IMG/VR virus record: IMGVR_UViG_3300033070_001518 | Coordinates: 16,412-80,411 of that record | Source: a virus | Taxonomy: Duplodnaviria > Caudoviricetes | Reading direction: 5' to 3' (one strand) | Length of the DNA stretch: 64,000 nt | Shown: positions 55,288-55,368 of the stretch, piece after piece | Layout: the number at the start of each line of letters is the position of its first letter | Position numbering within the stretch: the first letter of the stretch is position 1 | The notes under the pieces: generated by a model | The model's database searches: none | What the model was told of the DNA's origin: nothing | Seen by the model: the letters and a program-made list of their open reading frames with translations, nothing else | Translations under genes and position numbers: made by a program

Positions 55288-55368
55288 CGCCTCCTACAGG
55301 ATTCGAACCCGATAACACTTAGTTTAGAGCCAAGTTCCACACCCAAGGCGGAATTAAGTTTAGGAAGC
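55288..55368 (-). tRNA. Atypical tRNA with CUA anticodon (amber suppressor)
   Basis: Acceptor GCTTCCT/AGGAGGC, discriminator G, anticodon stem (A)CTTGG/CTAAG(T) with loop CTCTAAA (CTA at 55325-55327), T-loop TTCGAAT, enlarged D region; no encoded CCA. Confidence 0.85.

Follow-up and report, generated by a model that had tools for sequence, protein, structure and literature searches.

Transfer RNAs in which the 12-bp branch formed by the acceptor and T stems is split into 8 and 4 bp (8/4) rather than 7 and 5 bp (7/5) have been described in phages and bacteria. Mukai et al. 2017 (NAR 45:2776, PMC5389517) reported 8/4 phage and bacterial tRNA-Ser and tRNA-His, some of them in phage tRNA clusters, as well as the allo-tRNAs (8/4 and 9/3), engineered CUA versions of which work in E. 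coli, and an "E-loop" tRNA1. The last was found in soil metatranscriptome polycistrons, harbors an extra loop between the acceptor and D stems, carries U73, is acidobacterial and toxin-antitoxin-linked, and was not charged in vitro (PMC5389517). The tRNA-Pyl, in turn, has a 7/5 branch, joins its acceptor and D stems by 1 base and lacks both the T-Psi-C sequence and, in its small D loop (~5 nt), the GG (G18G19) (PMC7609411), and the recoded crAss-like, Lak and other phages pair a CUA suppressor tRNA with genes containing in-frame UAG codons in standard-code hosts (bioRxiv 10.1101/2021.08.26.457843, PMC9523058). Here we analyze an 81-nt element in a 64-kb stretch of phage DNA, hereafter the window, which forms the last 64 kb of the 80.4-kb IMG/VR record IMGVR_UViG_3300033070_001518 (G000). 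The element combines the 8/4 branch with a CUA anticodon, a long acceptor-to-D connector and a short variable loop, and it lies beside genes that begin with an amber codon shortly after their ATG.

The G000 record has a GC content of 30%, is 31% complete by CheckV and is a fragment of a jumbo phage. On its minus strand the element reads GCUUCCU AAACUUAAUUCCGCCUUGGGUGUGGAA CUUGG CUCUAAA CUAAG ... AGGAGGC G. As the original prediction had noted from the letters alone, it spans 81 nt, has its acceptor (7 bp) and anticodon (5 bp) stems set 27 nt apart, and contains a U3:G70 pair, G73, the loop CUCUAAA, a short variable loop and a possible sixth anticodon-stem pair. The extension of the acceptor to 8 bp next to a 4-bp T stem, also foreseen there, is what the minimum-free-energy fold gives, an 8/4 cloverleaf in which no pair is disrupted. 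A single-stranded connector takes the place of the 2 nt that link the acceptor and D stems in canonical tRNAs. CCA is not encoded; G73 is followed by CAAAAAC, and a discriminator followed by C is likewise seen in the canonical tRNA genes of the relative G002. Standard searches pass the element over. ARAGORN at default settings, one of the checks proposed at the outset, reported no tRNA in the whole window, and the Rfam tRNA model (RF00005) covers exactly the 81 nt at 24.4 bits, below its gathering threshold of 29 bits and with the D region unaligned. With a lowered threshold ARAGORN returned a 70-nt "tRNA-Pyl" (genome positions 71698-71767), which has a poor 5/7 acceptor stem, and the 81-nt fold was preferred. 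Because the folding energy of the single window sequence is unremarkable (z = −1.88), a comparative test with homologs was needed.

The Pth2-like gene downstream of the element served as bait for homologs and led to IMG/VR loci, first 5 and then 45 (loci are designated by L numbers, genomes by G numbers). ARAGORN showed no tRNA at the matching spots in most of the 45 Pth2 loci, and a simple T-loop scan revealed the same odd layout in relatives. When seven members were aligned by MAFFT only, structure not being used as a guide (alignment A4), 95.6% of the cells were paired and 16 of 23 pairs showed compensatory changes, with pairing falling to 31–48% when the partners were slid against each other. 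A covariance model built from this alignment (R1) was used to search for further members, and in total 19 distinct homologs were found in IMG/VR jumbo-phage records, 17 of which were aligned. In 16 distinct members, pairing extends to 93.4% of cells and compensatory changes are seen in 19 of 23 pairs, with a covariation score of 0.848 compared with 0.273 for shuffled data; 0 of 500 shuffles reached the former value. A covariance model from homologs had been suggested as a further check, and such a model, R2, built from 16 relatives with the window element left out, finds the window element at 73.3 bits (E 1.4e-19), exactly at its two ends and over model positions 1-80 of 80, while no canonical tRNA of that genome exceeds 31 bits. 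The complete genomes G002 (373 kb), G003 (430 kb) and G004 (434 kb), which have terminal repeats, contain exactly one copy each, with no more than 39 bits for any other of their tRNAs. All 13 family members scored with Rfam fall short of its threshold, and ARAGORN misses all of 18. To our knowledge, the suppressors of recoded phages are found by standard tRNA finders.

Collectively, these data leave little doubt that the 8/4 element represents a selected, structured tRNA family. The contrary view, that it is a decayed tRNA pseudogene or recombination relic, for instance one disrupted by the neighboring HNH gene and devoid of present function, is exceedingly improbable. The blank ARAGORN result, the Rfam score under the cutoff, the HNH gene that adjoins the tRNA, the 12-nt 3′ remnant found in the same place in the closest relative and the duplicated 3′ fragments of L010 would all fit such decay. 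However, the absence of compensatory changes that the original prediction had named as the mark of a pseudogene is not what the homologs display, as the changes in 19 of the 23 pairs extend over 16 diverged sequences. Moreover, unpaired bases of the connector, D loop, anticodon loop and T loop are invariant, there is one copy per complete genome, the putative promoter box upstream is conserved and the window copy has no broken pair.

The eighth acceptor pair is present in 16/16 members (GC in 8, AU in 3, CG in 3 and GU in 2), and the alternative, canonical fifth T-stem pair could form in only 2/16, which establishes the branch as 8/4; its total of 12 bp is that of normal tRNAs. Over the same members 97.7% of acceptor-stem cells and 100% of T-stem cells are paired, and three of the four T pairs covary. 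The connector has the consensus A-R-N-N-U-A-A-W. If the model is imposed on canonical tRNAs, it is their U8-A9, the 5′ strand of their D stem and their A14-A15 that align with this connector, suggesting that the connector may be a relic of an ancestral D-stem strand. Two unpaired connector positions were also seen to covary (tRNA positions 10 and 16, columns 10 and 17 of alignments A6 and A7), with A10-U16 in 10 sequences, G10-A16 in 5 and 2 exceptions, which could reflect a tertiary contact or mere shared ancestry. A pairing of the connector UAA with the variable loop, checked by eye, showed no conservation and was rejected.

Two folds had been entertained for the D region. The stem UCCGC/GUGGA stood, with 96% of cells paired and all five pairs compensatory, whereas ACUUAA/UUGGGU, a pairing of the connector with the D loop, is paired in only 47.6% and was rejected. 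A sixth D pair (U16:A34) would compete with the 26:44 pair that makes the anticodon stem nominally 6 bp, and the two are paired in 10/16 and 12/16 members, respectively. The D loop of the family measures 5–7 nt and contains one invariant G, which lies within a GG motif; GG in the D loop is needed for the D-loop/T-loop contact. The anticodon loop is YU-CUA-AA, with U33, C34, U35, A36 and A37 invariant in 17/17 and hence CUA as the anticodon of every aligned member. The variable loop has 4–6 nt, and the T loop is the standard UUCGAAU.

Thus, the element shares with canonical tRNAs a four-arm cloverleaf, a U33 loop, the D-loop GG and a UUCRANY T loop, and departs from them in its Rfam score, its invisibility to ARAGORN, the 8-nt connector, the 5-bp D stem (3–4 bp in canonical tRNAs) and the 8/4 branch. 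As the UAG is placed close to the start codon, bacterial initiator tRNAs were compared as well; these are marked by a C1xA72 mismatch and, at the base of the anticodon stem, a run of three G-C pairs. In the present family, G1-C72 is invariant and the anticodon stem has mixed pairs, with position 31:39 mismatched in most members. The 8/4 tRNAs of Mukai et al. share the split of the branch, and the E-loop tRNA1, compared by description only, shares the enlarged connector. In contrast to these, which have Ser, His or GCU/GGU anticodons, the present family always has CUA and A73 or G73 and resides in jumbo phages, behind a putative Bacteroidota-type promoter and beside amber-start genes; the GG-bearing D loop and short variable loop further set it apart, again by description, from the E-loop tRNA1. 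The allo-tRNAs resemble it in the 8/4 branch, the longer D and anticodon stems and their suppressor potential, but bear the long variable arm of Ser identity and a tRNA-Sec-like D stem with a tetraloop in place of a 4–6-nt variable loop, a 5–7-nt D loop with GG and an 8-nt connector. The likeness to tRNA-Pyl that the original prediction saw everywhere except in the D region is real as regards the CUA anticodon, the loop CUCUAAA, the nominal 6-bp anticodon stem and the short variable loop. The differences comprise the 8/4 branch, the 8-nt connector, the D-loop GG, the UUCGAAU loop and a variable loop of 5 nt (window) instead of 3 nt, and no PylRS-type gene is present in G000 or G002-G004. Finally, tRNA-Sec is similar in its 8-bp acceptor stem (bacterial type), extended D stem and 6-bp anticodon stem and different in its 13-bp branch (8/5 or 9/4), long variable arm, 4-nt D loop and UCA anticodon (PMC7609411).

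Judged by its sequence and predicted fold, then, the present element is not a tRNA-Pyl, tRNA-Sec, allo-tRNA or initiator tRNA. The proposal that it represents a distinct suppressor class holds in that the family has its own conserved architecture, an unchanging CUA and strong covariation; it does not hold for the 8/4 arrangement, which was already known (PMC5389517). What is new is a CUA family with a long connector, a short variable loop and a link to amber-start genes. Our literature searches found no description of an 8/4 CUA tRNA family or of amber-started Pth2 genes. Likewise, a megablast of the tRNA neighborhood against GenBank phages and exact-word scans of IMG/VR with the tRNA D region and 3′ end gave no match, and an IMG/VR pattern scan with spacer N{11,15} yielded only two new records, L202 and L224.

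Adjacent to the tRNA on its downstream side are the Pth2-like gene and an HD-domain gene, which begins 4 nt after the Pth2-like stop. Both have an in-frame UAG within a few codons of their ATG. The Pth2-like gene offers no other in-frame ATG, and in most relatives, too, the frame after the TAG lacks one. In 42 of 45 related loci the Pth2 start conforms to ATG-(1-7 codons)-TAG-(ATT/ATA/GTA/GTT), always in frame. Since neither GTA nor GTT serves as a start codon, and the ATG keeps the frame in every case though its distance varies, read-through from this upstream ATG would be the simplest explanation of the amber starts. In many loci the HD gene, too, has an amber start of this kind, and its amber-start homologs conserve the amino acids encoded from the TAG to the following ATG, indicating that this stretch is translated. 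Its H...HD motif is invariant, and Pfam HD is matched in 8/10 homologs. The base that follows UAG in the amber starts is always a purine; work in E. coli by Bossi and by Miller and Albertini reportedly found that a purine after UAG favors suppression.

In the window and in L025, L028, L041, L043 and L202, an amber-start gene follows the tRNA directly. In G002, a credible amber start is confined to the Pth2 and HD genes, which share a strand with the only CUA tRNA of that genome and lie 3.4 kb downstream of it; the 33 canonical tRNAs that ARAGORN lists there cover almost every amino acid, and none of them reads UAG. An annotated tRNA-Sup accompanies the Pth2 start ATG AAA TAG ATA in the cultured Tenacibaculum phage pT24. 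From these arrangements it seems probable that the 8/4 tRNA works as a suppressor for the neighboring amber-start genes.

Several observations count against this suppressor function. The loop-closing 31:39 pair, G-C in the window, is mismatched in 14/16 relatives, which is unusual for an efficient elongator. UAG ends 13–17% of long open reading frames (ORFs) in these genomes, and back-up stops near the TAG are not enriched. In the closest relative, L008/L013 (84% identity in Pth2), the amber start persists although the tRNA is reduced to its final 12 nt, and no tRNA copy was found in the 80-kb fragment of this relative. The acceptor stems are too variable to carry identity, and the amino acids considered below, Lys or Gln, rest on E. 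coli rules. In addition, alignment A6 was fitted to the model and is thus biased toward the 8/4 tRNA structure, although the MAFFT-only alignment A4 agrees with it.

Some of these points would also suit a conserved tRNA-shaped RNA that is not an elongator and acts as a decoy for anticodon nucleases or other defenses, as a regulator or as a processing signal for the 5′ end of the Pth2 mRNA, with the amber-start genes being translated by re-initiation after a 2-3 codon mini-ORF or from a non-AUG start. Natural 8/4 and irregular tRNAs have been found to be charged but unused in translation, or inactive in E. coli (PMC5389517), the 31:39 mismatch and odd core could hamper use by the ribosome, UAG remains a normal stop in 13–17% of genes with no adaptation to read-through, and the loci of relatives hold several other irregular tRNA-like elements. 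Nevertheless, we regard this explanation as unlikely. Selection for decoding would be expected to hold the YU-CUA-AA loop constant and let the stems drift, which is the pattern seen. Every UAG shares its reading frame with an ATG upstream, whatever the distance between them, the codon after UAG is GUA or GUU in some loci, neither of which is a start codon, and each of the four near-complete genomes with amber-start genes that were checked has one CUA tRNA.

If the tRNA does act as a suppressor, its use of UAG would differ from that of the recoded phages. The latter have many in-frame UAGs across late genes (code 15), whereas here read-through would be confined to codons 3-9 of two or three genes. 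Genome-wide TAG recoding was considered and rejected, because code 11 gives dense ORFs and there is no systematic mid-gene TAG. Where a TAG separates two long frames, a start codon follows within ~15 codons in all but two cases (29 and 77 codons, both with short downstream frames). With UAG as an ordinary stop in 13–17% of long ORFs, strong general suppression would be costly, so suppression may be weak or timed; and with amber starts limited to a few genes, the tRNA would serve as a gene-specific gate and not as a recoding device.

The amber-start layout recurs in further genes of relatives, of the form ATG-(1-4 codons)-TAG-(A/G)TN, often directly downstream of an 8/4 tRNA and encoding 311-322 aa or 222 aa, which indicates that in some relatives the amber-gated set is larger than Pth2 and HD. 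In pT24, the coding sequence (CDS) BPT24_235 begins at an internal ATG (locus position 4082), and a conserved Pth2 N terminus is found upstream of it, behind the ATG AAA TAG ATA at locus position 3948. The annotated start of BPT24_235 thus appears to be 45 codons too late, the amber codon having been taken for a stop and the protein cut short as a result. In pT24, L043-L048 and L051, the frame after the amber start spans ~270-300 aa with the Pth2 domain first and, by its length and N-terminal domain, may encode a Pth2-HD fusion. The openings AUG AGC UAG (55244-55252) and AUG AGC AAC UAG (54901-54912) of the two window genes resemble the lambda bar minigenes, which provoke peptidyl-tRNA drop-off. 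That such an opening stands at the head of a peptidyl-tRNA hydrolase gene is maybe no coincidence, but this is pure speculation.

An exact TAnnTTTG box, which we take to be the Bacteroidota sigma-A −7 promoter element, is found 10-25 nt upstream of the tRNA in 11/17 members, the window included (counted within 45 nt). We infer that it is a promoter transcribed by host polymerase. Together, the box and the host of pT24 suggest that the hosts of the family's phages are probably Bacteroidota.

As to charging, which the original prediction had attributed to either host or phage, the proposed search for synthetase, PylRS and release-factor genes returned one divergent ArgRS-like gene, located outside the window, and no PylRS-type or RF-1 gene. 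Specifically, the Pfam families tRNA-synt_2, 1c, 1b, 2b and 2d and RF-1 were absent from G000 and G002-G004, while control genomes were all matched; the 2d family, PF01409, is the class II family of PylRS/PheRS type. The ArgRS-like gene encodes a very divergent class I protein of 398 aa with HLGH and KMSSS motifs, which matches the ArgRS model TIGR00456 weakly and in part, well short of the cutoff (E 1.4e-12); the gene adjoins tRNA-Arg(CCU), tRNA-Leu(CAA) and tRNA-Thr(CGU). Among five large relatives only G005 has a homolog (57% identical), and G005 lacks the 8/4 tRNA. The gene was rejected as a dedicated synthetase, being absent from G002-G004, which have the tRNA, and present in G005, which does not.

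With these synthetase families missing from tRNA-bearing genomes, a host aminoacyl-tRNA synthetase is the most likely charger, an assignment we make with moderate confidence. A comparison with the canonical tRNAs of the phage gave no clear identity, as some members share the tRNA-Lys 3′ end GGGAUCA and others have a tRNA-Met-like acceptor. Drift of the acceptor stem beside a fixed anticodon loop and discriminator makes it probable that recognition depends mainly on the anticodon. By E. coli identity rules, a CUA tRNA recognized in this way most likely receives Lys or Gln, which would be the most plausible amino acids here.

It could be argued instead that an unrecognized phage enzyme charges the tRNA, the two forming a natural orthogonal pair, possibly with a nonstandard amino acid, and with the 8/4 core and connector as identity elements. 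The invariance of the unpaired A9, U14, A15 and A16 suggests recognition by a protein or in a tertiary contact, the sequence of the acceptor stems is free to change, many genes of these jumbo phages have no assigned function, and the window's genome does encode one divergent class I synthetase-like protein. We nonetheless consider such an enzyme very unlikely. The synthetase-like gene does not co-occur with the tRNA in G002-G005, the five synthetase Pfam families are absent from three complete genomes, and ordinary 7/5 CUA tRNAs serve the same amber-start genes in related phages. A broader scheme appears doubtful, though somewhat less remote. In it, the 8/4 core and the A9/U14-A15-A16 connector would constitute an identity or insulation module that renders the tRNA nearly orthogonal, charged by one host or phage enzyme, and makes it the switch for a tRNA-maintenance module of Pth2 and HD phosphohydrolase. 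Such a tRNA could be shielded from tRNA-targeting defenses or out-compete release factor 1 (RF1) only in the first codons.

Ordinary 7/5 CUA tRNAs are found in more distant relatives, and G001 (385 kb), which is without the 8/4 type, has a canonical CUA tRNA. The 8/4 form therefore appears, on sequence grounds, to be a derived replacement within the lineage. The nearest GenBank relatives of the Pth2 protein are encoded by 460-735 kb uncultured "huge phage" assemblies and by pT24. The case of L008/L013 indicates that the tRNA gene can be lost or moved in relatives. In L008 (same record as L013), homology to the window begins inside the T stem, leaving the remnant CUGUAGGAGGCG with unrelated DNA upstream, and in L010 a 3′ tRNA fragment is present twice. 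Recombination in these phages seems to have its breakpoints at tRNA genes. In the window a divergent HNH endonuclease gene (Pfam HNH, E 9e-7) adjoins the tRNA, and a homing-type nuclease could explain gene turnover at this locus.

Other irregular tRNA-like elements cluster between the 8/4 tRNA and Pth2 in relatives; the window has none there. They are 71-107 nt long; the acceptor stems read AGUCAGG.../...CCUGACUA, the D arm resembles that of tRNA-Leu, the T arm is normal, and the anticodon or variable region is odd or much elongated. In L009 and L012, which have no tRNA at this place, long, very stable hairpins followed by a U run abut Pth2 upstream. They were rejected as degenerate tRNA copies, being terminator-like (z ~ −6.7), and are probably intrinsic terminators. 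Within the tRNA cluster at the start of the G000 record, two further elements are weak or irregular, scoring 33 and 25.9 bits with Rfam, the second having a CAU loop. The coordinates of all these features are given in Table 1.

Table 1. Features of the tRNA locus in the window and, where a locus or genome is named, in related or flanking sequence
Feature	Position	Strand	Details
Candidate amber suppressor tRNA, noncanonical 8/4	55288..55368	-	81 nt
Acceptor stem, 5′ strand	55361..55368	-	8 nt, GCUUCCUA; pairs with 55289-55296, UAGGAGGC
Connector, acceptor to D	55353..55360	-	8 nt, single-stranded, AACUUAAU; A9, U14, A15, A16 invariant 17/17
D arm	55336..55352	-	5-bp stem UCCGC/GUGGA; 7-nt loop CUUGGGU containing GG
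Anticodon arm	55317..55335	-	6-bp stem ACUUGG/CUAAGU; loop CUCUAAA; anticodon CUA 55327-55325
T arm	55297..55311	-	4-bp stem CGGG/CCUG; loop UUCGAAU
Discriminator G73	55288	-	A73 in 15/17 members
Putative promoter box TATATTTG	55379..55386	-	10 nt upstream of tRNA 5′ end; fits TAnnTTTG
Pth2-like gene	54917..55252	-	Start ATG AGC TAG ATA; UAG 55244-55246; PF01981 PTH2, E 1.8e-6
HD-domain gene	54325..54912	-	Start ATG AGC AAC TAG ATT; UAG 54901-54903
HNH endonuclease gene	55424-55981	+	Divergent from tRNA
Further amber-start genes	L028:1520-2485; L043:1506-2447; L051:1499-2479		
Further amber-start gene	L202, 850-1515 after TAG	-	
pT24 Pth2 frame	L073:3948-4900		LC168164.1 ~194084-195036
ArgRS-like gene	L007/G000 1864-3057		Outside window
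Weak/irregular tRNA-like elements	G000 478-532, 918-987 (L007)		
tRNA remnant	L008:2940-2955		
Irregular tRNA-like elements	L010:2825-2931; L021:1568-1638, 1880-1963; L022:457-540; L030:1485-1588; L040:2178-2265		
Irregular tRNA-like elements	L014, near 948, 1584, 1816		T loops
Hairpins	L009:2892-2956; L012:2889-2955		

Taken as a whole, the evidence makes it likely that the window element is a functional member of a conserved jumbo-phage family of amber suppressors that gates a few phage genes. In the mechanism we envisage, the tRNA would be transcribed from its own host-type promoter, and host enzymes would trim the transcript and add CCA. A host synthetase would then charge it, mainly via the CUA anticodon and the discriminator base, and the charged tRNA would read UAG in competition with RF1. 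It would act on UAG codons that follow the ATG by 2-8 codons in a small number of phage genes, in the window the adjacent Pth2-like and HD genes, so that these proteins would be made only when the suppressor is present, and UAG elsewhere in the genome would stay an ordinary stop.

Because the family escapes standard annotation, genes that depend on it are mis-annotated; indeed, in pT24, which has an ordinary suppressor, the GenBank Pth2 CDS is already truncated by the amber codon. The selective retention of an 8/4 tRNA with a long connector and short variable loop across diverged giant phages widens the range of tRNA shapes that are probably workable on bacterial ribosomes. Its link to UAG at codons 3-9 in standard-code genomes points to suppression as a gene-specific switch. 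A fixed anticodon loop, connector and discriminator combined with a drifting acceptor also make the family an attractive start for orthogonal amber suppressors. If the 8/4 core and connector do act as an insulation module, these tRNAs would represent a new class of gene-specific stop-codon gate and a scaffold for code expansion in Bacteroidota.

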